Source: Fibrobacter succinogenes subsp. succinogenes S85 (GTDB lineage: Bacteria > Fibrobacterota > Fibrobacteria > Fibrobacterales > Fibrobacteraceae). From it: a DNA stretch of 32,000 bases. The number at the start of each line of letters is the position of its first letter. Positions within the stretch are counted from its first letter, which is position 1. Of this stretch, positions 12,739 through 30,878 are shown one piece after another. The notes under the pieces are model-generated. The model ran no database searches and was not told the origin of the DNA. It was given only the letters and a program-made list of their open reading frames with translations. Location of the stretch: the NCBI RefSeq assembly GCF_000146505.1, contig NC_017448.1:1500001-1532000 (forward strand), given 5' to 3'. The position numbers and the translations under genes were made by a program.

Positions 12739-14712
12739 CTATATTTTCCAGAGAGCACGGGACTTACGTTCTTCGACAAGTTTGCTAATCTCCGAAATCA
12801 AGCCCGCATTGGCAAGCAAGTCCTCGACACTGCACGGTGTGCGATATGTCCAGTTCTTGCCACCGACCGTTCCCGGAATGTTGACGCGTTCTTCCTTCGG
12901 GTCGCAATCAGAAAGCGAAGCCGAAAGTGCAAAGTAGTCCTGGATTGGCGGTATGCAGAACAAACTATTTGCAGTAAACACATGCGACAAGATATCGTGC
13001 ACCACCGGCGGCGTAAGCTTTTCAGGGGCAACACCCGGCAAACCGGCGTGAGACCAGTAGAAGCCCTTGTCAAAGTCAGGTTCTTCCCACATACCGCGGA
13101 GCGTCGAAGTATCGTGGCAGCTCGTCGTGCAAACGGAAAGACGCGGGTATTCGTCCATGCTGTAGTACGGAGAATACGGAACATTCCAGTTGCGGGCCCA
13201 GCGTTCAATGCGCAGCGACATGATATCGAGCTTCTTGAGCACAGTCGGCACGCACGGCGGCACGGCGCCAAGGTCTTCGGCACAAACGAGCATATCCGTT
13301 TCGTTGGCGAGTACAGACAAAAGCTTCATGGCATTCTGTTCCCAGAGAGCATTCTGAGCCTGTTCGTTCTGGCCAATCAAATCGTGGAGTTTATCTTGTT
13401 CATTCTGCGGAAGCGTAAAGAGCACCGGCTGGTTGTACCAGTACCAGTACGGGTAGAACGTATTTTCGTCACCCGTCGGGATAAATACGCGGTTCCAGTA
13501 AACGCGGAGCATGGAATCCTTGACTTCTTGCGGTTCGTCAAGCGAAAGAATTGCGCGTTCCGACAAGTATTCCGGCTTAATGACAAAGCGGTCGAACTTT
13601 CCCGGCAAATTTTCAAAATACAGAGAGATAAGCCTGTCCGTTTCGCTGCCGAGGAATTCGCGCAACTGGTCCACAGAGAAGTTCGGACGACGCAAATATT
13701 CAAGCGTTTCACGGTAGAACCCCGCATTGCGGAGCACATCCCATGTAAGCGGAATGGACGGCTGGAAGCGGCCCAAGATACCCGTTGATTCAGATTCAGG
13801 AATTGCCCAAATGCGGAAGAATCCGAGCACGTGGTCAATGCGGTAGGCGTGATAGAACTTGCTAGCCTGAGCCAAACGGCGGCGCCACCAGCCGAAGTCA
13901 TCGGCTTCAAGTACGTCCCAACGGTAAGTCGGGAAACCCCAGTTCTGGCCACCGTAGCTAAACATGTCAGGAGGCGCACCAGCGCGGTCGGCAAGCGAGA
14001 AGTACTTGCGGTCAAACCACACGTCGGCACTGTCTTCGTTGATGAGGATAGGCACGTCGCCCTTCAAGCGGAGCCCGAGTTTGGAGACTTCGTTCACGGC
14101 GGCGGTAAACTGGCCTTCGGCAGTGTACTGCATCCAAGCCTGGAACAGCACGTCCCTGTAGTTCTTCATCCAAAGCTTGTCGACATCGGCAGCGGAGGGG
14201 TTCTGGAACTTTTTCCAGTCCTTCCAGCTAGCTTCGTTGTTCTGAGCCTTGAGCGTGCAGTAGACGCAATAGGACTTGACCCAGGAGTTTTTGTCAATCC
14301 AGGCCAGGAGCTTCTTTGAAGATTTCAGGACATCATACTGGTTATCAAAAATCTTGCGGAGGATGGCGCGCTTCCACGTGGTAATGCGGTAATAATCAAC
14401 TCGTTCAATACCAGCAAACTGCGCACGAGCCTTTTCGATTTCATGTTCGAGGACGGTAGCGCCTTCGACGGACTGCACGTTGATGAACACCGGGTTCAAG
14501 GCAAATGCGCTGCGGGCACTGTAAGGACTCGGCTCGGAGCCGGTATCGTTTACAGGCAAAAGCTGAATGATATTGAATCCGCAGAACTTGGCCCACTGGG
14601 CGAACGGAATCAAGTCCAGGAATTCGCCAATGCCAATGCTGTGCTTGCTGTGAAGACTGAAAAGGGGAACGGCTACGCCGGTTTGAAAGGAAGTTAAATC
14701 ACCATATCGCAT
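12739..14712 (-). CDS. malQ: 4-alpha-glucanotransferase (amylomaltase, GH77)
   Basis: 657 aa with GH77 signatures: GVAVPLFSLHS, LLPVNDTG, YRIDHVLGFFRIW, CAEDLGAVP, TSCHDTSTLRGMW. Confidence 0.92.
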   Translation of the reverse strand: MRYGDLTSFQTGVAVPLFSLHSKHSIGIGEFLDLIPFAQWAKFCGFNIIQLLPVNDTGSEPSPYSARSAFALNPVFINVQSVEGATVLEHEIEKARAQFAGIERVDYYRITTWKRAILRKIFDNQYDVLKSSKKLLAWIDKNSWVKSYCVYCTLKAQNNEASWKDWKKFQNPSAADVDKLWMKNYRDVLFQAWMQYTAEGQFTAAVNEVSKLGLRLKGDVPILINEDSADVWFDRKYFSLADRAGAPPDMFSYGGQNWGFPTYRWDVLEADDFGWWRRRLAQASKFYHAYRIDHVLGFFRIWAIPESESTGILGRFQPSIPLTWDVLRNAGFYRETLEYLRRPNFSVDQLREFLGSETDRLISLYFENLPGKFDRFVIKPEYLSERAILSLDEPQEVKDSMLRVYWNRVFIPTGDENTFYPYWYWYNQPVLFTLPQNEQDKLHDLIGQNEQAQNALWEQNAMKLLSVLANETDMLVCAEDLGAVPPCVPTVLKKLDIMSLRIERWARNWNVPYSPYYSMDEYPRLSVCTTSCHDTSTLRGMWEEPDFDKGFYWSHAGLPGVAPEKLTPPVVHDILSHVFTANSLFCIPPIQDYFALSASLSDCDPKEERVNIPGTVGGKNWTYRTPCSVEDLLANAGLISEISKLVEERKSRALWKI

Positions 14713-14764
14713 GCTTCAAATATAACTCTAATTTTGTAAAAGAATCTTTTAAATTGCTAGCAAA

Positions 14765-14790
14765 TAAAAAAAGGCTCGGAAACCCGAGAC
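14765..14790 (-). terminator. Terminator of micro-gene unit 1
   Basis: The minus strand reads GGTCTCGGGTTTCCGAGCC (an imperfect stem) followed by TTTTTTTATTTG. Confidence 0.55.
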
Positions 14791-14821
14791 CAATTCTTAT
14801 TCTTAATCGTTCTTTATAGAA

Positions 14822-14885
14822 TTAGGCACGCTTAGCGTACTTCTTAAAGCTCTTTAATCAAGAGGGCGGCGAGAATGCAGTACAT
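14822..14885 (-). pseudogene. Micro-ORF unit 1: a frameshifted paralogue of the 20-aa peptide gene, reading MYCILAALLIKEL* as sequenced
   Basis: ATG at 14885 with AAGGAG 8 nt upstream. One extra T in the run 14853-14855 relative to unit 2 gives a stop at 14844-14846. Removing it restores ...KSFKKYAKRA* ending at 14822. Confidence 0.45.
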
Positions 14886-14915
14886 TATTTTGACTCCTTG
14901 TTTTTGACGGCGCCA

Positions 14916-14944
14916 ATATTAACAAAGTTTTACTAACACGTCAA
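14916..14944 (-). promoter_or_regulatory. Promoter of micro-gene unit 1
   Basis: The minus strand reads TTGACG, a 17-nt spacer, then TAATAT. The latter can also be read as TAATATTGG, an FCB-type -7 box. Confidence 0.5.
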
Positions 14945-15030
14945 GGTATTTTAGTATATATTTCGGCAACTTTTTTGGACATTTCGTCCATAACAAAATT
15001 CGGCGCCGACCTTGAACGATTTAAGCCCCT

Positions 15031-15061
15031 AAAAAAAGCAAAGCCACGGAAATTCCGTGGC
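15031..15061 (-). terminator. Terminator of micro-gene unit 2
   Basis: The minus strand reads GCCACGGAATTTCCGTGGC followed by TTTGCTTTTTTT. Confidence 0.75.
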
Positions 15062-15100
15062 GTCGCGTTCGTTAGTTGGAGAGAGAAAAATCTTTTTCGA

Positions 15101-15163
15101 TTAAGCACGCTTTGCGTATTTCTTAAAGCTCTTAATCAAGAGGGCGGCGAGAATGCAGTACAT
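15101..15163 (-). CDS. Micro-ORF unit 2: 20-aa hydrophobic-cationic peptide MYCILAALLIKSFKKYAKRA
   Basis: ATG at 15163 with AAGGAG 8 nt upstream. It has its own promoter and terminator. It is paralogous to unit 1, and only synonymous differences occur in the tail codons. It is absent from the ORF track because of its size. Confidence 0.55.
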   Translation of the reverse strand: MYCILAALLIKSFKKYAKRA

Positions 15164-15193
15164 TGTTTAGACTCCTTGTTTTTGACGGCGCCA

Positions 15194-15222
15194 ATGATAA
15201 TAATTTTTTACTAACGTTTCAA
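15194..15222 (-). promoter_or_regulatory. Promoter of micro-gene unit 2
   Basis: The minus strand reads TTGAAA, a 17-nt spacer, then TATCAT. It sits in the same register relative to the conserved leader GGCGCCGTCAAAAAC as in unit 1. Confidence 0.5.
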
Positions 15223-15381
15223 GGGTGAAAAATATAGATTTCGCGAAAATTTTTCGAAACCGTTTTTAGGACTGTTACACCCGCAAAATTGGGCCTCGCC
15301 CTGCACCCAAATAACACAATTCTTGCGATTGTTCTATATATATTGCAATCTCCGGGGTGGAAATTTGGTAAATTATGGGCT

Positions 15382-17205
15382 ATGAAACGATTTTTGCTTT
15401 TATGTCTCGGTTTAACAGCATTTGTAAACGCAAAGCCATCTCTTCAAGTCGATAGCGACCGCATCGAAGCGGGTCAGACATTCAATTTGCAGTTCATCGT
15501 TCCGATTCAGGAACTGCCGCAGAACAGAGGCGCGCTCCGCCTCGAAACACGCAATAACTTTAAGTTCCTCGGGCTCGACAGTGCCGACCAGGTGATGCGC
15601 CCGGACATGGACGATATTTTCAACTCGTTTTTCGGCGGTGGCGGAAGAGCCTACAAAGCCCGCGTCTATTCTTTCAAGATTAAAGCCCCGAAAAAGACCG
15701 GTACACAAGACCTCGGAACGCTTACCTGGATGATTGGCGGCGAAGCCAACACCATCAGTAGCAAAATCCCGGTCAGCGTGCAGCGTTCCTATAACGACGA
15801 CGCACTCGCCGTAAGCCTTACCCCGAGCAAAAAGTCCATTTACGAAGGTGAACAGTTCAGCGTCACCCTCAGCCTCCACACTTTTGAGCATTTCCAGGGC
15901 GGCCTCCAGGCTACCGACATGAGCACCGGCAACGATTTCATCGTCCACCGTAATGACCTCTCAAATCTGGATTTCAAGCCAGTCGAAGGCGCCCGTCGCG
16001 AAATGAAGGCATCCGCCAAATACGCTTGGCTCAGCCCGACCAAGAGCGGAACACTCCAAATTCCGTCTTTCAAGTTCAAGTACACCAAGCTCGGTGAACC
16101 CAAAGTCGTCGAAGAAAAGAAGCAAATGGGCGGCATGTCATTCTCCAGCCGTAGCGTAAAGCAGGAATCCATCGAAACGGAAACCTCCACCGCTCCGCTT
16201 TCCATTACCGTTCTCCCACTCCCGACCGAAGGCAAGCCTGCCGATTTCTCGGGAATGGTCGGTAACTACAGCTTTAGTGCCAACTTTGACCGCACAAATC
16301 TCAAGGTCGGCGAAGCATTGACTCTTGCGATTAGCATCAAGGGCGATGGCACTCCAGGAACCATCACGGACCCGAAACTCCCCGACTTTAGTGAATTCCG
16401 CTCCGTCCCGCCCGAAAACAGCATCAACAAGAAGGTCAAGGGCAACAAGGTCATTACCTCAAAGGATATCAAGGTTTTCCTCTACCCGAAGAAAAAGGGA
16501 ACTTTCGAAATCCCGGCCATTACCTATTCCTGGTTCAACCCGGCTAAAAAGAAGTACGAAACCGCTTCGGCAGGCCCGTGGACTATTGAAGTTGAAAAGA
16601 GCGATGCCCCCGCAGAACCCGTTTACCAAGCTCCGGTTTCCGCAGGCACTGGCACCTCGGCTCCTGTCGTTCAAAAGCAAGAAATTGAATTCCTAGGCAG
16701 CGACATCCGCTTTATCCACCCGATTACAGACAAGTCCGAAACGGCAGCCCCGCACAGGAGCGTATTGTTCTGGATTCTCTTTGCTGCGGCAATTCCGTTC
16801 TACCTGATTGTGAACTTCGCCATCACACGCAAGCGTAAGCGCAACAGCAACACAGCTCTCGTCCGCAAGGGCAAGGCAAACAAGCTCCTCAAGGAAAAAT
16901 TCGCAAACGCCCGCACAGCCCTCAAGAACGGTGACGGCAAGGCTTTCTTTGCAGCACTAGAAAATGGACTTATCGATTACCTCAGCAATTTGACGAACGT
17001 CGAATTCAAGGGCATGACCCGCCCGCAAATGAAGCAGGAACTTTCAAAGCGCGGCGTCAAGGAAGAAACGATTGAAGCCATCAACAGTTGGCTTGAAAAA
17101 TGCTCGTTTGTGCGTTTTGCTCCGGTCACTGCATCGACCGAAGAACAGTCCCAAATGCTCGCAGATGTCGAAAAGCTCTGCGAAAGCCTCGAAAAACTCA
17201 AGTAG
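15382..17205 (+). CDS. batD: BatD-family (oxygen-tolerance) protein
   Basis: 607 aa from ATG 15382 (MKRFLLLCLGLTAFVNA, a signal peptide). It has repeated Ig-like modules, the hallmark LPLPTEGKPADFSGMVGNYSF...GEALTLAISIKGDGTPG, and a C-terminal TM helix plus cytoplasmic tail. Confidence 0.75.
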   Translation: MKRFLLLCLGLTAFVNAKPSLQVDSDRIEAGQTFNLQFIVPIQELPQNRGALRLETRNNFKFLGLDSADQVMRPDMDDIFNSFFGGGGRAYKARVYSFKIKAPKKTGTQDLGTLTWMIGGEANTISSKIPVSVQRSYNDDALAVSLTPSKKSIYEGEQFSVTLSLHTFEHFQGGLQATDMSTGNDFIVHRNDLSNLDFKPVEGARREMKASAKYAWLSPTKSGTLQIPSFKFKYTKLGEPKVVEEKKQMGGMSFSSRSVKQESIETETSTAPLSITVLPLPTEGKPADFSGMVGNYSFSANFDRTNLKVGEALTLAISIKGDGTPGTITDPKLPDFSEFRSVPPENSINKKVKGNKVITSKDIKVFLYPKKKGTFEIPAITYSWFNPAKKKYETASAGPWTIEVEKSDAPAEPVYQAPVSAGTGTSAPVVQKQEIEFLGSDIRFIHPITDKSETAAPHRSVLFWILFAAAIPFYLIVNFAITRKRKRNSNTALVRKGKANKLLKEKFANARTALKNGDGKAFFAALENGLIDYLSNLTNVEFKGMTRPQMKQELSKRGVKEETIEAINSWLEKCSFVRFAPVTASTEEQSQMLADVEKLCESLEKLK

Positions 17206-20569: not shown

Positions 20570-23500
20570 CTAATCAAATCTCAGCATCAGAGCAAGTTCA
20601 AACTGGAGAATCTGGCGGATATGAGCCGTTTCGTCGTCCAGCTTTTCATGAATCTGCCTGTACTCGATGTACGAACTGAGCGAAGCCATCTTGTTGAACG
20701 TGTAAGAAGCACTCGGGCGGATGAACCATTCGTGCGTTCTTGACGGAACCGTGCGGTAGTTCAATTCGAGCTTCGGCTTGTAAGCTACAAAAGGCTTCAC
20801 GCCGGAATCATACTGATAACGCACAAATACGCCATCCGTACCCGATTCCTCGTTCATCATGTCATAACCTTCCACCGGTTTGTATTCCTTACGGATAGTC
20901 TTCCTGTAATCGTAACCGGCAGTAAGCTTCAAGTCAATATCGTTCTTGAGCTTAAAGAACCACTTCCAAATCTGGAAGCCCTTGTCAAGCTTGAGCGGGT
21001 ACGAAATTGAGAAGTCATCACCGACATTAATGGCAAAGTCATTATAAAGCCAAGTCGGGATCCACGGCGTTTCAAGGAAGTACTTTGTGGTATCCGTGCA
21101 GATTTCCTCGGACTCATCCGGCCAGCAAGGATTCGAAATCACTTCTTCCTTCGGGCGGCGGTCGGTAGATTCAATCTTCATACGCACGCTGTTTTCAATG
21201 CGCAAGTTGTTCTGCGTAAGGACAGAAACGCGGATAAGCGGGTTAAAGTTCCAGACTCTAGCCCAGGAATCTTCGGCGCTCTGGAACGGACGGCTTGTCA
21301 CCGTACGGGAATAGTCAAAGCGGCTATTCAGGCTTACGCTACGGAAACGATTCAAGAACGAAACCTTCTGGGAAATGTTCGGAATCGATATCCCGATGCC
21401 AAACTTCGGGAAGGTGGTTGTCGTATCGATGTACAGCGGATATTCACGAGACTGCGAGAAGTCTTCTTTCCACTGGAAGTCTGTCGACAAAGAAATATCC
21501 CAGAACGGCAAAGTGAGGCCTGTAGAAATCTGCAAAGAACGAGACACAGAATTGCGGAAGCTACCCTGATAGACAAGCGTATCCACATTTTTGTTCCTGT
21601 ACTGGGCAAAACCGGTAAAGTCATCGCGGCTAGTCATGCCCATATTACCCGTCATGATATTCCAGAGACCACGACCACCGTGACCATCGCCAAGACCAAG
21701 ACCATAGAGGTAATACTGGAACGGAGTCACGCCCTGTTCTTCGTACAGCTGAGAAAGAGTAAAGTTTTCACCGACCGTATTCGTACTTGCATTCCAGTTG
21801 AACTTGACTTCACGCCACTTGAGCTTGTTGAAGAATCCGGCAACAGCGTTATCCTTGCCGAACAAATTGGCAAGATCAATGATTCTGAGAGCCGGAGTAA
21901 ATTCAAAGCGGTTCGTCTGCGAAATCGTCCAGTAATTCTTTTCGACGTTAGACGGATCTTCAAAATTGAAATCGTCCGGAATACTCTTCTGCTGGTTAAA
22001 GTCCGAAGAGAACTGCATATTGAACGGCAAGAACGGAATCAGCTTGGGATTGAAGTTAATCCTGAACTGCTGATTTCTGGAACGTTCGTTACGGAGAATG
22101 CCGTAAGCACGTCCATATTCGCGATGTCCAACGCTATCGACCTTGTAGAACGAAGTCGTATCATAGCGGATTTCGTACGAATCCGGATTTTGCAAGTCAA
22201 TCGGGAGCTGCTTGCCGTTGGCATCCGTCTTTGCAATCGTATCCAGCGGGATAACTACGAGACTGTCGCGAGAGACGTAGACCTTTCTGTCAGAATGATC
22301 GTGGTCAAAGATGTAACCGCTCGCAAAAAGACCGCCCTTGTCAAACGTAAAGAAGTTTTCCTTCACGAAAGCTTCACGGTCTCCACCGCCAAACATGTCA
22401 CGCTTGATATTGACAGAATAGCTCGTCGAGAGGAACGAAAGGATGTTCCAGCGCATGTTCAACTTGTGGTTGAGCTCGGCAGTATAAGTCACGACCTTAT
22501 CGACCTGCGGTTCCACAAAGTCCGGATCGCGAGTCTGGTTCACATAGCGCACGTAGTTGAAATCGAACAATGTCAAATCGAAAGTCTGCGGCCACGGTTC
22601 AAATTCCGTCTTCGAGAAGTCCTTGAGCCAGGAATACTTTGAAAGGCTTTCGAACGGCTTGAACTTGAACATGCTAAACGTACCCAGCTTATACTCGAAC
22701 ATCGCATGGTACGAATACGTGGAGTCCGCCGATGTCGTAGAACGGCCTTCGGACTGGTGGTAAGAATAGCTTAACGCCGGACGTTCCAAGAAAGCCTGCG
22801 AGAAGAATTCACCTAGCTTGGTTTCGCTAGCCTTGTAATCCTTATGGTAGCTGATGCTAAAGCCCAAATCCTGTTCATAGGATTCATAGCCCTTGGATTC
22901 AGCGTTATCCCTCAACCTGTTTTCTTCTTCTTCGGATTCTACGGCAAGGTCGCCCTGGAACATATCACCCGTCAAATCGACAAAGCTGCTCTTGTTGAGG
23001 ATCATGTCGTCTGTGGGCTTCATGTAGGGGCGTTTCGTAGAGCTGTGGTAGCTAAACGACATCGGGATGTGGAATCCAAGAGAATCGTTCAAGAACTTGT
23101 TGAGCGCAATGGAAATGTCGGCAGAAATATCAAGCTGAGATGCAGCGGAAGCAAGGTCCGGCTTCGGAGAGCGTCCCGAATTGGAGAGCGTTGCAAAGTC
23201 GCCGTCCTGATAACGCACAGCACCCGAAAGCGAGATAAAGTCTGCAAAATTCACCTGACCGTTCACGCGGGCGGCATAACCCCATTCCGTATCCATGTCA
23301 GAAAGGCGGAGGTCATTAATCCAGAATGTACCCTTGAGGTCATTGCGAGAAGCCGAAGAATCCGCGATAATCACAAAACGAATCCAGTCCACCTTCGTAA
23401 TGGAGGGGTTACCGACCAAGCGAAGCACTTCTTCCCTATCACCGTCAAGTTTCTTGACAACCGGGTCCAAATAAGGCGGATGGCGGCCACGCTTGAGGTC

Positions 23501-26500
23501 CGAGAAGTCGGACAAGTTCATAGCAAAGGCGTTATCAATCCAGTTCTGCTCATGGCAATCCTGCACGCGGTCCGGAGTGCAACCCGACATGTCCAAATCC
23601 TTCGGGCGGAAACTCCATTCATAATAGTCCTTGGAGCCTTCAATAGAGCCTTCGCCAAACTGCAATGCAAATCGCACAGGAACAGAGGACTTCGTTTCGG
23701 CACCGTTTTCGTAATGGATTTCCATCTTCAGGGACTTATACGCCGAGAAGTTCTTCGTATCGACATCAAACACGCGCGTCACACCGACTTCCTGGCCAGG
23801 ACTCATGTTGTGGTAATCCAAGACAAGAGCCGTTTCCTTGAGCGGGGCATTCGAATCCGCATCGCGTTCCGTCACCGTATTCGGGGACTTGAAATACGTC
23901 TTCGCATTTTCGCGGTTGTTGATGGTTGAAACATTGATGTAGGTCGTATCAGAAGAGACCGTTTCCGTGACCGTGTTTTCAACGCCGTTCACTTCGACAA
24001 TCTGCGAATTTTCGTTCGTAGAAGTGCGATACAAGCTTGCAACAGTCGTTTCTTCCCAGGCATTGCCCAAAACGCCGAGGCTTACCACCTGCACCTTCGC
24101 TTCGGAAACACCAGGACCAAGACGGCCCAGCCACATACGGGTGAAATGGGATTCCGCAAGGATTTCGCGATAGCCGCTACCCGTCGAAGAAACAATCGTA
24201 TCGTACTGGCTCAGCGGAATACGCCATCTGCGCCAGCCGTTTTTCAGTTCTTCAAATTCAAGCTTATCCGTGCTAGAAAGGTCGATGCGGTAACGGACAA
24301 AGCTGATATCCGTATCAAAGGAACCGTTCCTATTGATATCTTCGGTATCATAAGCACGTTCGCCCAAGTTACCTTCAGTACCGTTAATGCTCTTCGGCGG
24401 ATCGCTTTCTTCATCCAGGTCCTTGAAGTCATCACCGGCAATATCTCTCGTCGATAGATCAATATTACCCCTAGAGGCACTCAAGGTATCCGAACGACAG
24501 ACGGAATAGCGGCAATCCCAAGCGACCCTGCTTTCATCTTGACCAGTAAGCTCGTCAAGACCTCTATCGTGCCTTGCGGTCGTCATGCCGAGCTGGTTTT
24601 CACCGTTGTAAATACCGTTAGGTGCATAACCATTAATCGAGATGTCTTCGCTGACAAGACCCAAGTCAATAAAGATAGAACCGGAATTACCACGAGCAAC
24701 CACTTCAAGGTACTTCATCTCGCTCAAGTCCTGGTAATACGAGCTGTTTGCGCGCATGATACCGCCCCAAGAATTACCCATGAGGTTATCATTCGGGCGC
24801 AACGTCATCTTGAGCACCGTCAAGTGCTGGTTATCGACATCAGAGTTGCCAACGTTATCGTAAATGTACTTGTAGAGTTCCGTATTGTTGCTATGCCAGA
24901 TAAACTCACCCTGATGACGATAGTCCAAGTCCTCGATGTAAGTTGATCTGAACGGAAGAGAGTCAATACCGCCCGGAGGAGATGCCGGATACCAGGATTG
25001 CCTAGAAAGCGGATACACAAGGCCAGTCGAGGTTGATTCAAAGTCTTCGACAAGAGCGGTCTGCGTGCTGCTCGTGTTCGCATTATGCCTACTACCGGCA
25101 AATTCAGCTTCAACGCGCCAGTTAGAAGATGCGGTTGTCTGGATACCCGGAATGGCATTGACCAAGTCCGTGAGAGCCTGCACAGAATCCTGCAAGCGGA
25201 GGTTGAAGCCCCAAAGGAAGCTGGAGTACGGTTCGTTACCAAGAGTCGGAACTTCGGCGGTTGTGCTCTGGCTCTTGTAAAGGGCGGTAATGCCAAAGAC
25301 AGAACCAGCACCAAAGCCATAGAGGTCAAGAGGCAATTCTGCACGAGCACCCAAAAGCAACTTGTTGTCCACTTCAAACATGGGCTCGCATTCAAACTTG
25401 ACCTTGATTTCCTTGTTCGGGTCAAGAGCGCGTTCACTCAAAAGTTCAATCTGGCCAAGTTCATAATTGACTTCGTAGTCAGTCCCACGGATAAGCGTTG
25501 TCGAACCGGCAGTCACCTTTTCAGAACCCGGAGAAATATCCATGCAGCTACCGCTATTCACAGAATAGCTCGAATTCGGATCACGCACGCTAAGCGTAGA
25601 GTTACGGCGCTTGCCCACAGATTCAAAGTAGAACAGGCTCGTGTAACGGTTCAGGTTGTAAACCGGGAGCGTGTAAAGCTGTTCCATCGCCGAGGTAGTA
25701 TCCAGGTTACGCAAAGGTTCCAAGCAGTTCTGCTTAGCCAGTTCCAGAGCGTTAGAACGTCCTGAATAAATTGTATCGGTAAACGGCTTACAGGGCAACC
25801 ACATTTCACCGGTATAGCTACCTAGGGAATCCTTCTTGAATATGGTAGCGTCGTTCACCAGCGGAGTTCCGTTTGACTCATCCGCAAGTCCGAGCTGTTT
25901 CAAGTAATTTCCGGAAACGCCCGACTTGTTTTTCATGCGGAGCACAAAGTTGTTTGCACTCGCATCAGAAATGCCGATGGAATACACATTGCGCAACATC
26001 AACTTGTCAATGTCCTTGAGTTCGCTCAGCGTTGCATCCCACTGGATAAGGACCGCTTCGCCACCATTGCGCAAATCCTTGCCCTTGCGTTGTTCGTTCT
26101 CGCTACTGTAGTTCGCCGCAATGAGTGTGTTTCGGTTGACACCGTTAATCTTCAAGATACCCGTCTTAGGATCGTACTTGTAATCCGATCGCGGAATTTC
26201 TTCCATGCGGTTTACAACCTTTCTAATTTCCTTTCCTTGCTGGGTCGTATAAACAACGGTGACATCCTTGATGACATTGTCCGTTTCATTCAGCGAGCTT
26301 CTCTTGTACAGCTTCAGGTCAGACAACGGATAGTTGATGTTGCCTTTCTTGATGGCTGCATTGACGTAGTCAGTCCTCACCTTGTGGTTCAAGAAGTAAT
26401 AGCGGTACGCAAGGAACTGCTTATCGGTAATCTGGAACTCGGTCGTTGATTCACTCGCCTTGATGGAATACTCTTCCTGCTGACCGCCATCCTGAGAGGC

Positions 26501-27859
26501 AATCGTCGTCAACTTCCAGTCGCCCAGCTTCCAGTCGGCCTTGATACCAAAAAGACCCTGATGGTTTTCGGAATACCCCGTAAACTCCGTACCCGCAAGC
26601 GAGAGGTTTGTCGTACCCGCTTCAACACGCTGCAAGATGTAATCTTCAAATTCACCCTTGAACGATTCTTCGTAGACCACGCGGACTTCGTTCTGCGAAC
26701 CGAGACCTTCATCCACGTTCTTGATTTCGACGGTGATGTACGGGCCAATCTTACCTTCGACCATGAAGCTCGGATTGTAGTCCAAGGACGGCGACGGCCA
26801 GAGACTCGTCTTGGTGCTGCCTTCGGCATCATCCTTTTCACCATAGCCCTTGAAGCGTACGTCCATCGTACCCTTGAGCATGAGTTTCGGCTTGTTGAAG
26901 CCAAAGTCCTTCATCCATGCAGGCATGTTCACAGGAATCGTGATATCAAAGACAGAACCCGTTTCAGGCGCTTCGTATCCACCATCGTTCTGGCCGACAA
27001 GGCCATTGAGCCAAAGGCGTTTGCGCCCAACATCGTACATGTCCGAAACGTAATCTGCAAGTTCCGGATAATGCGATGTCCAAAGCACCGTCGTATCCGT
27101 ACGGGAAAGCGAGTTCACACGCTTTTCTGTCACGTCAATTTCACGGGTCGCGACATCAATATCGTGCGAGAACACCTGACCTTTCGACGTATTCATCAAG
27201 CCCGCACGCATGCCGATACCACCCATCGGGAGGAGGCCGTCGAGCGGGGATGTAGACTTAGGCACAGGGATATACTTGATAGACGGAGTCCAGACGTCCG
27301 CAGATTCATCGGAAACCGATTCCGCAGAAGTTTCTGCACTTGCGACCGTACGCGGAGGTGCTGTAACTTCGGGCTTTTGCGATTTTGTTACAGACGACGA
27401 AGATTTTGCAGCTGCAGAAGACGAAGACACCTTGACTGCAGAAGAGGAAACCGAAGCGCTAGAGGCAGGAGCCGAAACACTAGAAGCAGGCTTTGCATCG
27501 CTTGAAACAGGCTTCGATGCACTTGAAACGGAAGCAGACGAAACTGGTGCCGACGATTTAGGCGCCACTGCACTTGATGCAGGCATTGCCGCAGACGAAA
27601 CCGCCACAGAAGGTTGAGACGGCTTGGATGGAGCAGCACTAGATGTAGGAGCTGCCGCACTTGAAGCAGGCGGAGCGCTCGAAGACGAAGCTACAGAAGC
27701 TGTAGACTTAGGCGCCGGAACATCCTGAAAAAGTTCATCGTCAAAAAGTGATTCGTACGAGCTAAGCGTTCCATCTTGAGACCAGACGGAACCCACAGCG
27801 ACAAAGCTGCATGCAGCAAAACCCCAAAGGGCGGATTTTAAAAACTTTCTAAAACGCAA
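20570..27859 (-). CDS. sprA: Giant SprA/Sov-like type IX secretion outer-membrane translocon protein
   Basis: 2429 aa. It has a signal peptide (ALWGFAACSFVAVGSVWSQ) reachable only from TTG 27859. It is beta-strand-rich throughout. The segment RVEAGTTNLSLAGTEFTGYSENHQGLFGIKADWKLGDWKLTTIASQDGGQ matches my memory of the SprA/Sov block (IEAGNVSLPL...SLFGIK...QFG.L..T.V.SQQ). The size fits the roughly 2400-aa family. Confidence 0.7.
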   Translation of the reverse strand: MRFRKFLKSALWGFAACSFVAVGSVWSQDGTLSSYESLFDDELFQDVPAPKSTASVASSSSAPPASSAAAPTSSAAPSKPSQPSVAVSSAAMPASSAVAPKSSAPVSSASVSSASKPVSSDAKPASSVSAPASSASVSSSAVKVSSSSAAAKSSSSVTKSQKPEVTAPPRTVASAETSAESVSDESADVWTPSIKYIPVPKSTSPLDGLLPMGGIGMRAGLMNTSKGQVFSHDIDVATREIDVTEKRVNSLSRTDTTVLWTSHYPELADYVSDMYDVGRKRLWLNGLVGQNDGGYEAPETGSVFDITIPVNMPAWMKDFGFNKPKLMLKGTMDVRFKGYGEKDDAEGSTKTSLWPSPSLDYNPSFMVEGKIGPYITVEIKNVDEGLGSQNEVRVVYEESFKGEFEDYILQRVEAGTTNLSLAGTEFTGYSENHQGLFGIKADWKLGDWKLTTIASQDGGQQEEYSIKASESTTEFQITDKQFLAYRYYFLNHKVRTDYVNAAIKKGNINYPLSDLKLYKRSSLNETDNVIKDVTVVYTTQQGKEIRKVVNRMEEIPRSDYKYDPKTGILKINGVNRNTLIAANYSSENEQRKGKDLRNGGEAVLIQWDATLSELKDIDKLMLRNVYSIGISDASANNFVLRMKNKSGVSGNYLKQLGLADESNGTPLVNDATIFKKDSLGSYTGEMWLPCKPFTDTIYSGRSNALELAKQNCLEPLRNLDTTSAMEQLYTLPVYNLNRYTSLFYFESVGKRRNSTLSVRDPNSSYSVNSGSCMDISPGSEKVTAGSTTLIRGTDYEVNYELGQIELLSERALDPNKEIKVKFECEPMFEVDNKLLLGARAELPLDLYGFGAGSVFGITALYKSQSTTAEVPTLGNEPYSSFLWGFNLRLQDSVQALTDLVNAIPGIQTTASSNWRVEAEFAGSRHNANTSSTQTALVEDFESTSTGLVYPLSRQSWYPASPPGGIDSLPFRSTYIEDLDYRHQGEFIWHSNNTELYKYIYDNVGNSDVDNQHLTVLKMTLRPNDNLMGNSWGGIMRANSSYYQDLSEMKYLEVVARGNSGSIFIDLGLVSEDISINGYAPNGIYNGENQLGMTTARHDRGLDELTGQDESRVAWDCRYSVCRSDTLSASRGNIDLSTRDIAGDDFKDLDEESDPPKSINGTEGNLGERAYDTEDINRNGSFDTDISFVRYRIDLSSTDKLEFEELKNGWRRWRIPLSQYDTIVSSTGSGYREILAESHFTRMWLGRLGPGVSEAKVQVVSLGVLGNAWEETTVASLYRTSTNENSQIVEVNGVENTVTETVSSDTTYINVSTINNRENAKTYFKSPNTVTERDADSNAPLKETALVLDYHNMSPGQEVGVTRVFDVDTKNFSAYKSLKMEIHYENGAETKSSVPVRFALQFGEGSIEGSKDYYEWSFRPKDLDMSGCTPDRVQDCHEQNWIDNAFAMNLSDFSDLKRGRHPPYLDPVVKKLDGDREEVLRLVGNPSITKVDWIRFVIIADSSASRNDLKGTFWINDLRLSDMDTEWGYAARVNGQVNFADFISLSGAVRYQDGDFATLSNSGRSPKPDLASAASQLDISADISIALNKFLNDSLGFHIPMSFSYHSSTKRPYMKPTDDMILNKSSFVDLTGDMFQGDLAVESEEEENRLRDNAESKGYESYEQDLGFSISYHKDYKASETKLGEFFSQAFLERPALSYSYHQSEGRSTTSADSTYSYHAMFEYKLGTFSMFKFKPFESLSKYSWLKDFSKTEFEPWPQTFDLTLFDFNYVRYVNQTRDPDFVEPQVDKVVTYTAELNHKLNMRWNILSFLSTSYSVNIKRDMFGGGDREAFVKENFFTFDKGGLFASGYIFDHDHSDRKVYVSRDSLVVIPLDTIAKTDANGKQLPIDLQNPDSYEIRYDTTSFYKVDSVGHREYGRAYGILRNERSRNQQFRINFNPKLIPFLPFNMQFSSDFNQQKSIPDDFNFEDPSNVEKNYWTISQTNRFEFTPALRIIDLANLFGKDNAVAGFFNKLKWREVKFNWNASTNTVGENFTLSQLYEEQGVTPFQYYLYGLGLGDGHGGRGLWNIMTGNMGMTSRDDFTGFAQYRNKNVDTLVYQGSFRNSVSRSLQISTGLTLPFWDISLSTDFQWKEDFSQSREYPLYIDTTTTFPKFGIGISIPNISQKVSFLNRFRSVSLNSRFDYSRTVTSRPFQSAEDSWARVWNFNPLIRVSVLTQNNLRIENSVRMKIESTDRRPKEEVISNPCWPDESEEICTDTTKYFLETPWIPTWLYNDFAINVGDDFSISYPLKLDKGFQIWKWFFKLKNDIDLKLTAGYDYRKTIRKEYKPVEGYDMMNEESGTDGVFVRYQYDSGVKPFVAYKPKLELNYRTVPSRTHEWFIRPSASYTFNKMASLSSYIEYRQIHEKLDDETAHIRQILQFELALMLRFD

Positions 27860-27980: not shown

Positions 27981-29873
27981 CTAGAGGAACATTTCAATGC
28001 CGCCACGACACTTTTCCCAAGCCGGGTTCTTTTTGCACAAGAGGTCGATCATCTTGTCGTAAGTAGCCGTATTGGAGAAGCCCTTCCACAAGCGACGTTC
28101 CACGGATTCACCGGAATCCTTGTCAATCGTCGTGATGGTGTCGTAGTAGGCCGTGTTGTCCTTGAATTCAGAAATCAAGATGTTCTTCAAGTCATCCGTG
28201 TAAATGCGGGAGGCGTACTTGAGGATGGAATCGTTGAAGTTGAGTTCGTTTTCGACGAGCCATTCGAAGTCCTGGATCGGGTTACCATAAACAAGCCAGT
28301 GCTTAAGGGCGAGAGCGACCACGAGATCCCTAACGGCGCTGCGGAAGATGAACTTGTCTTCGAGACGGCCATTCCACGTGATGCGGGTCAGCGGGTTATC
28401 ATCGTTAGCTTCAATAGACACACCCTTACCCGGAGTGACCTTGCGGATCTTAATCGGGAGACGGCTAAGGAGCTGCCATGCCTTCGTGAAGGCGATAGTC
28501 TTACGGACGAAGTCCTTTTCCTTTTCGGGGGCAACGCGCACAAAAGCACCGAAGCAGCGCTGGTAGAGAGTTTCCTTGTCGAAGATGCAGTCGCTGGAAC
28601 GGCATTCGCTGAGCTTTCCGTCCATGAGGAACAAGGTCTTTGCAAGTTCCGGACGCATACGGACTTCGAGCTTACGGGTACGGGCCTTGAGGCGGACACC
28701 GTCCTTGTAAACGTAGGTAAAGCCTTCTTCCTGGTAACGCTGCCAAATGAAGAACTGCAGGTCGTCAGCGGCACGCAGATGGTAGCTGAACACCGGGTTC
28801 TGGCGGTTGTTAGCCATAGTCACCTGATTCAGGAAGTTGTCGGCACCCTGGTACGGCACAACGACCTTCACGAGCACCTGCGGGTTCACCGGATGCTTGC
28901 TTTTCTTGGCATACTGTTCGTACGTGAAGAGGGACTGAGCACCGTTGATGATCTTCGGGCGTTCAATGAAGAGGACCTTCTTGCCGTCACGTTCCTTGAG
29001 ACGCAGGTCATCGCCCGTAAGGGTCATACCGTTGTGGAGGAACGGGAAGTCGTCGACATTCACATTCTGGTCATCGTTACGTTCCATCGTCTGGAAAGCA
29101 TCGATGAGGGCTGCGTTCGTGTGAGTGAGGTTACCGAGGTAAGTACGGATGTTGGAACTGACGATAGCCATGTTGTGCTTGGTCTTGAGGCGCTTACCAA
29201 GGGCAACGTGGTAGTCAAAAATCGTGCGGATCGGGCAGAAGCCGAGGAAAAGCTCGCCGTGATCAGAAGTGAGGTGGAGCGGTTCAGAGTCCATCTCGAT
29301 TTCAAGCTTGTCGTCTGCGCTGCGGAAGTCGCGGGTAAGGTCGTCATGTTCGGCAATGATTTCAAGCTTTGCCTTGACGTCAGCCTTCCAGAGCATGAGC
29401 TTTCTGCGCATGTCCTTGAGAGTACGTTCAAGTTCGGAGTCCGTGATGTCGCGGCTTGCGCGAGTGCGGAGCACCGTGATTTCGAGCGTTTCCATGTACG
29501 GACGGCTTGCAGGCGTGTCGGAATCTTCTTCGGATTCGTCGTCAGAAATCTTGTTGACTGCCCACGGGTCGGCTTCTTCGCGAAGTGAGAGGAAGAACGG
29601 ATTGGTCGGGTCGCTAGTACGGAACACCGCAATCTGGAGCTGCTTCAAGTCAGCGTTCAGGTGTGCGACAACCTTTTCAAGCGGAGTATCTTCGTCCAAG
29701 AAGATGAAGAATTCCATAAAGCCCTGTGAATACTGGAAGCCGTGGAAGCATCCATTTTCATCTAGGTTCAGATGCCGGAGTGCCTTGATTCTATCGTTCG
29801 GGTCGTTAGGGTTCAAGCTCAAGAGGCTAGCGACAAATGCTAAGCGGCGTTCCTGCGATTTTGTTAGTTCCAT
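27981..29873 (-). CDS. AIPR-like (abortive infection phage resistance family) protein with an unassigned N-terminal region
   Basis: 630 aa from ATG 29873 (GAGG SD 5 nt upstream). The central block NIRTYLGNLTHTNAALIDAF...FPFLHNGMTLTGDD...IINGAQSLFT matches my recollection of the AIPR core (NvR.fLG...N..I..T...NNGITI...IVNG.QT). I recognise nothing in the N-terminal roughly 230 aa or in the acidic linker DDESEEDSD. Confidence 0.45.
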   Translation of the reverse strand: MELTKSQERRLAFVASLLSLNPNDPNDRIKALRHLNLDENGCFHGFQYSQGFMEFFIFLDEDTPLEKVVAHLNADLKQLQIAVFRTSDPTNPFFLSLREEADPWAVNKISDDESEEDSDTPASRPYMETLEITVLRTRASRDITDSELERTLKDMRRKLMLWKADVKAKLEIIAEHDDLTRDFRSADDKLEIEMDSEPLHLTSDHGELFLGFCPIRTIFDYHVALGKRLKTKHNMAIVSSNIRTYLGNLTHTNAALIDAFQTMERNDDQNVNVDDFPFLHNGMTLTGDDLRLKERDGKKVLFIERPKIINGAQSLFTYEQYAKKSKHPVNPQVLVKVVVPYQGADNFLNQVTMANNRQNPVFSYHLRAADDLQFFIWQRYQEEGFTYVYKDGVRLKARTRKLEVRMRPELAKTLFLMDGKLSECRSSDCIFDKETLYQRCFGAFVRVAPEKEKDFVRKTIAFTKAWQLLSRLPIKIRKVTPGKGVSIEANDDNPLTRITWNGRLEDKFIFRSAVRDLVVALALKHWLVYGNPIQDFEWLVENELNFNDSILKYASRIYTDDLKNILISEFKDNTAYYDTITTIDKDSGESVERRLWKGFSNTATYDKMIDLLCKKNPAWEKCRGGIEMFL

Positions 29874-29899
29874 TTTTTCCTCAATAATTACACTGAAAA

Positions 29900-29926
29900 C
29901 CAATATACAATATTATTATATATTGG
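29900..29926. promoter_or_regulatory. 27-bp near-perfect palindrome in the AIPR/LRR divergent region (candidate operator)
   Basis: CCAATATACAATATTATTATATATTGG. 12 of 13 arm positions pair. It lies 27-53 nt upstream of the AIPR-like ATG. Confidence 0.5.
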
Positions 29927-30125
29927 AATATTCGTAATTTGCACCTTAAAAATAGTTTCAAATCATAATATTTGCGTGCAAAAAAGATAAAACATTCAAT
30001 TTTTTTTAGAAAAATACAAAATTTCAGTGCTCAAATGTGTAAAAATCTCATTTTTTACATTTTTTTTGTGGACTTTACGTTTTTTTGAACAAAAAAGCTA
30101 TGATTTAAATATTAGGAGTTTTTTT

Positions 30126-30878
30126 ATGAATTTACTAGACGTTATTGCCAAAGCAAAAAAAGAAAAAGCAAAGACGCTCGACCTTTCCCAGAAAGGCCTG
30201 CGCCTCCTCCCCCCGGAACTTTTTGAAATTGAGTCCCTTGAGGAACTGAACCTCGACCGGAACATGCTTGTCGAAATTCCCGACGACATCGGCCTCCTCA
30301 AGAACCTGAAGAGCCTCTCCGTGAGCGAAAACGACCTCATGGAACTGCCGGAATCCATCGGTGAGCTCACCAAGCTTGAAAACCTCTATCTCGGCTACAA
30401 CAGCCTTTCGGACCTTCCGGAATCTGTCGGCAAGCTCGTGAACCTCCAGACGGTGAACATTGCCAAAAACCAGCTTCTGGACCTGCCGCTCGAAATCGGC
30501 AACTGGCAGAAGGTCGTGAAGCTCTCGCTCCACGACAACATGCTCTCCGAAATTCCGCCGACCATCGGCAAGATGAAGAGCCTCGTGAAGCTCTACCTCG
30601 ACAACAATGAACTTTCAACCATCCCGGCAACGCTCTCGCACCTCGAGAACCTCGAAATCCTCATGATTTCCGGAAACCGCCTGGGAGCCATTCCGTCTGA
30701 ATTCGGCAACCTGAAGAACCTCCGTGAACAGGTACTCGACGCAAACCAGCTCGCCACGCTCCCGGAAAGCCTCGCCGAATGCGAAAACCTCAAGACCATC
30801 TCCATCATCGAAAACCCGATGGAAGAAGGAGTTCCTCGCGTGCTCCTCGACAAGAAGGGCCTGAGCATCGACCAGTAG
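30126..30878 (+). CDS. Leucine-rich repeat (LRR) protein with no other domain
   Basis: 250 aa from ATG 30126 (AGGAG 7 nt upstream). It has nine to ten 23-residue repeats of the form LxxLxLxxNxLxxLPxxIGxLxx. No signal peptide. The GTG extension to 30027 lies in an AT-rich promoter-like sequence. Confidence 0.85.
   Translation: MNLLDVIAKAKKEKAKTLDLSQKGLRLLPPELFEIESLEELNLDRNMLVEIPDDIGLLKNLKSLSVSENDLMELPESIGELTKLENLYLGYNSLSDLPESVGKLVNLQTVNIAKNQLLDLPLEIGNWQKVVKLSLHDNMLSEIPPTIGKMKSLVKLYLDNNELSTIPATLSHLENLEILMISGNRLGAIPSEFGNLKNLREQVLDANQLATLPESLAECENLKTISIIENPMEEGVPRVLLDKKGLSIDQ

Follow-up and report, generated by a model that had tools for sequence, protein, structure and literature searches.

What is encoded by the two short, similar units that lie in the 670-bp spacer between malQ and batD of Fibrobacter succinogenes S85? 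This organism ranks among the principal degraders of cellulose in the rumen, and the cell envelope plays a central part in its workings. The units were first described in an initial annotation of a 32,000-nt stretch of the S85 chromosome (the window, to which all coordinates refer), as self-contained elements that each encode a hydrophobic, cationic peptide of 20 amino acids (aa). As judged from sequence comparison, they are paralogous tandem copies, each transcribed on its own, of a single gene that belongs to the core of the genus Fibrobacter, and this micro-gene is almost certainly translated. Our best explanation as a whole, to which we assign a probability of roughly 0.6, is that of such a duplicated core gene with a translated 20-residue product, which would serve as a small accessory or regulatory membrane protein.

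Both units were found on the minus strand as direct repeats (14821-14979 and 15100-15257), 278-279 nt apart and 82-91% identical. The repeated unit spanned about 159 nt, the AT-rich region upstream of the -35 element included, and not the 123 bp first assigned to it. A 25-mer comprising leader and Shine-Dalgarno sequence (TTGGCGCCGTCAAAAACAAGGAGTC) was identical in the two units and had exactly two matches in the window and none in shuffled sequences; a degenerate back-translated pattern of the peptide likewise matched exactly twice in the window and not at all after shuffling. In each unit AAGGAG was located 8 nt 5' of the ATG, a consensus scan of the minus strand returned a sigma70-like promoter with a 17-nt spacer, and a hairpin with T-run formed a terminator of the unit's own, the two terminators not being homologous to each other. 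With starts about 5-8 nt past the -10 elements, the two minus-strand transcripts are predicted to be about 145 and 158 nt long. In these respects the initial annotation was borne out, as it was for the three differences between the tails of unit 1 and unit 2, all of which fell at third positions in the peptide frame and were synonymous. The features of the units, including their open reading frames (ORFs) and untranslated regions (UTRs), were as follows.

15194-15257, minus strand: AT-rich region and promoter of unit 2 (batD-proximal), promoter-like site TTGAAA-17-TATCAT (15222-15194) with -35 TTGAAA at 15217-15222, -10 TATCAT at 15194-15199 and a 17-nt spacer (promoter scan, repeat).
15164-15193, minus strand: GC-rich block of unit 2 after the -10 element (TGGCGCC; block kept in all clades) and short A-rich 5'UTR with AAGGAG (sequence, shared 25-mer).
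15101-15163, minus strand: ORF of unit 2, 20 codons and TAA, predicted to encode MYCILAALLIKSFKKYAKRA (translation, homologues, ratio of nonsynonymous to synonymous variation).
15078-15085, minus strand: CU-rich motif in the 3'UTR of unit 2, CTCTCTCC (conserved among copies).
15031-15061, minus strand: predicted intrinsic terminator of unit 2, GCCACGG-aattt-CCGTGGC (hairpin 15061-15043) and T-run (terminator scan, fold).
14916-14979, minus strand: AT-rich region and promoter of unit 1 (malQ-proximal), promoter-like site TTGACG-17-TAATAT (14944-14916) with -35 TTGACG at 14939-14944 and -10 TAATAT at 14916-14921, the latter with TG ahead (promoter scan, repeat).
14886-14915, minus strand: GC-rich block of unit 1 and 5'UTR with AAGGAG (sequence, shared 25-mer).
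14822-14885, minus strand: ORF region of unit 1, read in the window as MYCILAALLIKEL and a stop codon (14844-14885); without an extra A, a 20-aa ORF ending in TAA at 14822-14824.
14766-14788, minus strand: predicted intrinsic terminator of unit 1, CTCGG-gttt-CCGAG (hairpin 14788-14775) and T-run (terminator scan, fold).

The 20-aa ORF first assigned to both units was upheld, in the window, for unit 2 only, as the reading of unit 1 had missed a base that is present in the window. Alignment of the two units showed AAA at 14853-14855 where unit 2 has AA, and this extra A cuts the ORF of unit 1 to 13 aa and puts the tail KSFKKYAKRA with its stop codon out of frame. The extra A was absent from CP001792.1 and from five independent Logan assemblies of S85, in all of which unit 1 has an intact ORF for the same 20-aa peptide as unit 2; over 7,975 aligned bases, the window differed from CP001792.1 by two mismatches and one gap. 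We therefore treat the 13-aa reading as an assembly error or laboratory variant and not as the normal state of the gene. The Logan short-read assemblies of S85 were also observed to break inside or beside the micro-gene, 55-225 nt upstream of malQ, likely because the two copies share an identical stretch of 33 nt; such breaks may be one reason why the region is poorly represented in assemblies.

The micro-gene was found throughout the genus. When a degenerate pattern covering the 11 N-terminal residues was run against a single genome of each species, it matched 55 loci, 54 of them from Fibrobacter/Fibrobacterales and one a chance match within a 73-aa ORF in Akkermansiaceae. The 54 Fibrobacter species genomes held 66 copies (63 of 20 aa, two of 21 aa, and one of 18 aa), always at one locus per genome, with two copies in tandem in 12 of the 54. 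Because this pattern fixed M, Y, C, A6, A7, and K11, rumen metagenomes were scanned with a second pattern in which, conversely, the tail is fixed and codons 2, 3, 6, and 7 are unconstrained; each of the 81 copies recovered in this way read MYCILA[AV]LL[IV]K. Loci selected through BatD alone carried the micro-gene in four of four cases and added two tail variants (...KGFKKYAKQYK and ...KSIKKYNKKHA). The resulting consensus was MYCILAALL[IV]KS[FL][KR]KxxKxA, at exactly 20 codons in nearly all copies. Residues Y2, C3, I4, A6, L8, L9, K11, K15, K18, and A20 were invariant or nearly so; positions 14, 16, 17, and 19 varied, yet remained basic or small. By these searches the micro-gene appears so far restricted to Fibrobacter, within the reach of a BatD homologue search that returned only relatives of at least 68% identity.

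Variation among the copies followed the reading frame. In 49 distinct 63-nt ORF sequences, third positions varied in 18 of 19 codons, first positions in 8, and second positions in 4. The ratio of nonsynonymous to synonymous variation (pN/pS) was 0.15 in the ORF frame, compared with 1.69 and 2.17 in the other two; with synonymous variation (pS) at 0.49, conservation is not due to lack of time for divergence. The position of the stop codon was fixed in about 150 copies, and identity of the peptide to the S85 form was 75-100% (median 90%) where that of BatD was 67-98% (median 74%). RNAalifold on 30 whole transcripts, with a rough alignment of the UTRs, found no conserved pairing over the ORF and only a 2-bp artefact. 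Codon-periodic variation, the in-frame pN/pS, the fixed length, and the lack of conserved RNA structure over the ORF together show, at the level of sequence comparison, that the peptide in both sequence and length is under strong purifying selection. Self-contained units with selection on the peptide and not just on an RNA had been claimed from the two S85 copies, and conservation following an RNA structure in place of the frame had been put forward as the outcome that would count against this; the conservation observed follows the frame.

The same data bear on whether the units might specify a noncoding small RNA in which the ORF is incidental. Short, discrete units with promoter, terminator, and conserved nucleotide sequence are what such an RNA would look like, but the codon-periodic substitutions, the low pN/pS in one frame only, and the fixed stop codon are not, and neither a match in Rfam nor a conserved structure was found. 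The substitution pattern effectively refutes this reading.

The gene was absent from the family libraries and the protein collection searched. Against Rfam, neither the whole window at gathering thresholds nor the region 14600-15500 under permissive settings matched above chance level; the peptide had no match in Pfam, NCBIfam, or PDB sequences; and eight exact peptide variants were sought among 15 billion predicted proteins without a single hit, in keeping with the initial expectation that automated annotation would skip both units. In the literature searched, the string MYCILAALL occurred in no paper, and a search on small RNAs and small proteins of Fibrobacter turned up no relevant paper; F. 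succinogenes is not known to have any small protein described. A genus-wide core gene has thus escaped even a 15-billion-protein catalogue. Bacterial small proteins are recognized by a length of at most 50 aa, purifying selection, and translation signals, and all three were found here; on sequence grounds, the micro-protein represents a new family, although of a kind already known, that of the bacterial micro-proteins. With about 150 copies, fixed length, and a clean codon signature, its ORF is among the shortest for which comparative evidence alone makes translation nearly certain. The peptide is also better conserved than its 600-aa neighbor.

Which of the two flanking genes is the conserved neighbor had been overlooked. 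In S85, the units are flanked by the following two genes.

12739-14712, minus strand: malQ (Pfam GH77 and NCBIfam malQ).
15382-17205, plus strand, divergent from the units: batD (Pfam BatD; one predicted transmembrane helix).

A batE-like gene with TPR and SH3 domains was located 3' of batD. A divergent BatD homologue was upstream of 63 of the 64 copies with readable flanks, usually followed by a BatE-like TPR gene, and of 60 of 70 copies on metagenome contigs with enough flanking sequence. The first downstream gene varied: 19 copies had malQ there, 33 had a convergent gene (most often radical-SAM and MqnC/MqnE-like), and 10 had another gene in the same direction (encoding a GT2 glycosyltransferase, an integrase, or a large surface protein). 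Units preceding malQ were confined to the S85 clade, whose members are close relatives with 94% MalQ identity, and none was found upstream of malQ in Fibrobacter relatives with 73-75% MalQ identity or in Hallerella; for that reason malQ was dropped as a functional neighbor. Comparison of gene order thus shows the conserved neighbor to be the divergent batD-batE pair and not malQ, and this context leaves batD and batE as the only candidate functional partners.

Several further observations concern the downstream side of the locus. Some close relatives of S85 carried two copies about 800 bp apart, compared with 279 bp in S85, and between them an opposite-strand gene of 163-165 aa whose product weakly matches DUF7139/CdpA_N and has membrane segments by prediction; the wider spacing and the inserted gene indicate that the duplication interval has been remodelled. 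Most single-copy species had, 50-300 nt downstream of the micro-gene, a convergent gene for a radical-SAM protein of 344 aa whose C-terminal domain is of the CofH/MqnC type and which is probably a menaquinone enzyme of the futalosine pathway, and in one relative a phage-type integrase took the place of the radical-SAM gene. From these arrangements, the downstream junction is evidently a site of rearrangement.

The variable downstream gene decides against a cis-acting role, in which translation of the ORF as a leader peptide would control read-through of the terminator into malQ. The initial annotation had dismissed a leader peptide on the grounds that no gene follows, and here the conclusion held while its reason did not: malQ follows unit 1 in the same orientation, its start 110 nt beyond the unit 1 stop codon and a terminator lying between, a layout that would suit an attenuator. 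But malQ was the first downstream gene for just the 19 copies above, the next gene was convergent for 33, and relatives with 73-75% MalQ identity lacked a unit upstream of malQ, so that a general leader-peptide role is ruled out by a downstream gene that is variable and often convergent. No alternative or conserved RNA structure was found, a weak negative given the rough UTR alignment; a separate TAnnTTTG box precedes the ATG of malQ by 6 nt; and conservation extends over the whole peptide and not over a set of regulatory codons. We regard attenuation as improbable in the extreme.

Expression signals were shared across the genus. All 58 readable copies had TTGnnn, exactly 17 nt, and TAnnnT followed by TGG, with an AT-rich stretch ahead of the promoter. 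A GC-rich block after the -10 element (GGCGCC, GGCGCG, GGGCCG, and the like) was present in all clades and corresponds to the "conserved leader" of the initial annotation. The 5'UTR was A-rich, about 25-30 nt long in the S85 clade and about 50-70 nt elsewhere; AAGGAG or AAGGA preceded the ATG by 7-9 nt across copies; and every copy ended in a hairpin and T-run, which were not homologous between clades. The Shine-Dalgarno sequence was of about average accessibility (unpaired probability 0.41, against a transcript mean of 0.46). In Escherichia coli, the stringently controlled rRNA and tRNA promoters have hexamers close to the consensus, with an AT-rich region upstream and a GC-rich block 3' of the -10 hexamer. 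By analogy, the promoter features of the micro-gene suggest high, growth-linked expression in Fibrobacter.

The flanking genes looked different. Upstream of malQ (14713-14730) and batD (15360-15381), a TAnnTTTG-like box ended 5-6 nt before the ATG and no Shine-Dalgarno sequence was seen; the box was TATATTTGaagcATG for malQ, TAAATTATGggctATG for batD in S85, and TAAATTTGGggcATG for batD in most relatives. These resemble the Bacteroidetes-type -7 promoter box and would drive mRNAs with little or no leader, whereas the micro-gene has a Shine-Dalgarno sequence. The -10 elements of the micro-gene (TAATATTG and TAAATTTG) were also similar to the TAnnTTTG-like box.

How such a peptide might act is suggested by its two halves. 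Residues 1-10 (MYCILAALLI) are uniformly apolar, with a mean Eisenberg hydrophobicity of 0.84 and a hydrophobic moment of 0.09, and residues 11-20 (KSFKKYAKRA) carry a charge of +5 and a hydrophobic moment of 0.79; when the latter were modelled as a helix, K11, K14, K15, K18, and R19 lay on one face and S12, F13, Y16, A17, and A20 on the opposite one. Under our best explanation, the gene would be expressed abundantly from its own strong promoter, the apolar half of the product would be buried in the inner leaflet of the cytoplasmic membrane or packed against a partner's transmembrane helices, and the basic amphipathic half would lie on the cytoplasmic face, as the positive-inside rule predicts. 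The peptide might there act as a small accessory or regulatory membrane protein. We put the odds that the product is membrane associated at about even. The candidate partners are BatD and BatE, both predicted membrane proteins: hydropathy predicts for BatD a single transmembrane helix at residues 458-483 followed by some 120 residues of cytoplasmic tail, and for BatE three hydrophobic segments. That either one is the partner is a tentative proposal and somewhat doubtful.

The composition of the peptide had initially been taken to place it with very small type I toxins of the Ibs/Sho class or with phenol-soluble modulins, and neither assignment is supported by the wider data. A type I toxin of the Ibs/ShoB class would be a membrane-depolarizing peptide under antisense-RNA control. 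The micro-protein resembles one in being tiny, hydrophobic, cationic, and unannotated, its gene is tandemly duplicated in S85, and a weak promoter-like site lies on the plus strand of S85 at 14933-14962. The longest apolar run, however, is 10 residues where about 18 or more are needed, and it is followed by ten residues of charge +5. None of the 66 copies had an antisense TTGnnn-N16-18-TAnnnT site (at least 9 of 12 matches) between -130 and +260, in a scan of the sigma-70-like consensus only. In single-copy species, the intergenic space is too small for a separate antitoxin gene. The near-consensus promoter, strong Shine-Dalgarno sequence of average accessibility, and short A-rich leader (25-69 nt) seem unlike the long, translation-blocking 5'UTR usual in such toxins; in the S85 clade, the Shine-Dalgarno sequence is predicted to pair with a CU-rich motif in the 3'UTR. 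A single syntenic locus in each of 54 species marks a core gene and not a patchy accessory one. A toxin of this class is therefore highly improbable.

A secreted or surface-active peptide would be a surfactant like the phenol-soluble modulins, a leaderless bacteriocin, or a signal whose receptor is the product of the divergent gene. Cationic and hydrophobic character, the lack of a signal peptide, a formyl-Met that is probably retained, and strong expression signals all accord with this, and the Rgg/SHP arrangement offers a loose analogy to a micro-gene divergent from a membrane-protein gene. Yet the peptide is amphipathic in its C-terminal half only (residues 1-10 having the low moment given above), none of the genes conserved in the vicinity is for an ABC exporter, immunity, or processing, and export from a Gram-negative cell would have to cross two membranes. 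Signalling peptides and bacteriocins, moreover, usually diversify between species, whereas the micro-protein is nearly invariant. We consider secretion very unlikely.

One conserved feature lies outside the ORF. CTCTCT or TCTCTC occurred 10-28 nt 3' of the stop codon in 43 of 66 copies, between stop codon and terminator, and in one 3'UTR alignment the columns of this CU-rich motif were at least 90% conserved and were the only well-conserved ones. The motif was found in 1.4% of random 60-nt windows from the same loci and at none of 19 other terminator-like sites, and its mean unpaired probability was 0.65, against 0.46 over all transcript positions. In the minimum-free-energy fold of S85 unit 2, the GGAG of the Shine-Dalgarno sequence was paired with CUCC of the motif (15078-15085). 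Pairing between the two was considered as a general autoregulatory fold and rejected, being predicted only in the short-leader S85 clade and not across the genus.

The motif might serve in autoregulation, act in trans as the seed of a regulatory RNA, or bind a protein. It raises the prospect of a dual-function RNA, compatible with our best explanation, in which the transcript both encodes the peptide and regulates, the motif pairing with purine-rich, Shine-Dalgarno-like sites in other mRNAs or else with the Shine-Dalgarno sequence of the transcript itself. The recurrence of the motif in an otherwise diverged 3'UTR, its rarity in the background, its mostly unpaired state, and the unit 2 fold argue for such a function. 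The restriction of the Shine-Dalgarno pairing to the S85 clade, the lack of covariation in the RNAalifold run on 30 transcripts, and the malQ-proximal paralogues, unit 1 included, which keep the ORF and lack the motif, argue against it, and on balance a dual function is unlikely. Decidedly less probable still is a fuller proposal, that of a growth-rate-coupled, Fibrobacter-specific bifunctional transcript that would yield an abundant membrane micro-protein working with BatD/BatE and would, through the CU-rich motif, regulate Shine-Dalgarno-containing mRNAs, in an organism where neighboring genes look leaderless.

Several points weigh against an accessory membrane protein working with the Bat proteins. 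Ten apolar residues are too few to span a bilayer alone, so that membrane association is suggested by composition, and expression, translation, and localization are likewise read here from sequence. The linkage to batD could be explained by inherited synteny or a shared control region, with no functional tie, and about 10 of the 70 metagenomic copies did not have BatD immediately upstream. The invariance at positions fixed by the genome-scan pattern rests on the metagenome scan and the four BatD-anchored loci. Finally, a purely protein-coding role leaves the conserved CU-rich motif in the 3'UTR unexplained. The function of the micro-protein is a proposal, whereas the comparative evidence for the gene itself is unusually clean for an ORF so short, in a rumen genus of importance.

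A small membrane protein of this kind would provide a candidate partner for the poorly understood BatD and BatE proteins, and its expression signals suggest high abundance. The peptide is a defined target for mass spectrometry and tagging: its diagnostic tryptic fragment MYCILAALLIK has a calculated monoisotopic mass of 1250.713 Da, with [M+2H]2+ at 626.364, or at 668.872 if N-formyl and carbamidomethyl-Cys are present. Should its function prove ordinary, a solid correction to annotation would remain.

The wider window is ordinary chromosome, with gyrB, secDF, an amylase gene, mnmA, and a giant SprA-like gene. The last is a 2,429-aa ORF (20570-27859, minus strand) with an SprA_N domain, like that of the type IX secretion translocon; it is convergent to batD-batE in S85, and an SprA_N gene was found at the equivalent position in two relatives. 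Next to it lies a 640-aa ORF (27981-29903, minus strand) with an AIPR (abortive-infection phage-resistance) domain, possibly a defence gene, followed by a gene for an LRR protein at 30027-30878.

Set beside known systems, the micro-protein shares features with several. Like the staphylococcal phenol-soluble modulins, it is about 20 aa long, lacks a signal peptide, and is predicted to form a cationic amphipathic helix, but it differs in that amphipathicity is confined to residues 11-20, no Pmt-like exporter is linked, the host is Gram-negative, and the sequence is near-invariant. The Ibs/Sib and ShoB/OhsC pairs are alike in size, hydrophobicity, and lack of annotation, and the tandem duplication in S85 is a further likeness; here, in contrast, no antisense partner was found in the scan described above, the apolar stretch lacks the necessary length, the gene belongs to the core genome at a single syntenic locus, and its signals point to high constitutive synthesis. 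RNAIII with delta-haemolysin and SgrS with SgrT likewise combine, in a small transcript, a tiny ORF with a conserved, unpaired pyrimidine-rich motif that may pair with ribosome-binding sites, but the ORF of the micro-gene makes up about 40% of its transcript, one type of paralogue lacks the motif, and no conserved stem-loops were found.

A further comparison is with small membrane proteins of enterobacteria and Bacillus, such as AcrZ, MgtS, KdpF, CydX, and SpoVM, a functional analogy that implies no homology. From these the micro-protein differs in showing no detectable sequence similarity, in being shorter, with 20 aa and 10 apolar residues, than a membrane-spanning helix, in being encoded by a monocistronic unit of its own with a very strong promoter and outside the operon of a partner, and in its so far exclusive occurrence in Fibrobacter. 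All are encoded by stand-alone or accessory ORFs of fewer than 50 aa of the sort that annotation overlooks, and all combine an apolar segment with basic residues expected on the cytoplasmic side. SpoVM is a short amphipathic helix on the membrane surface. By analogy with these proteins, the micro-protein of Fibrobacter would likely exert its effect through binding, either to a larger membrane protein or to the surface of the membrane.

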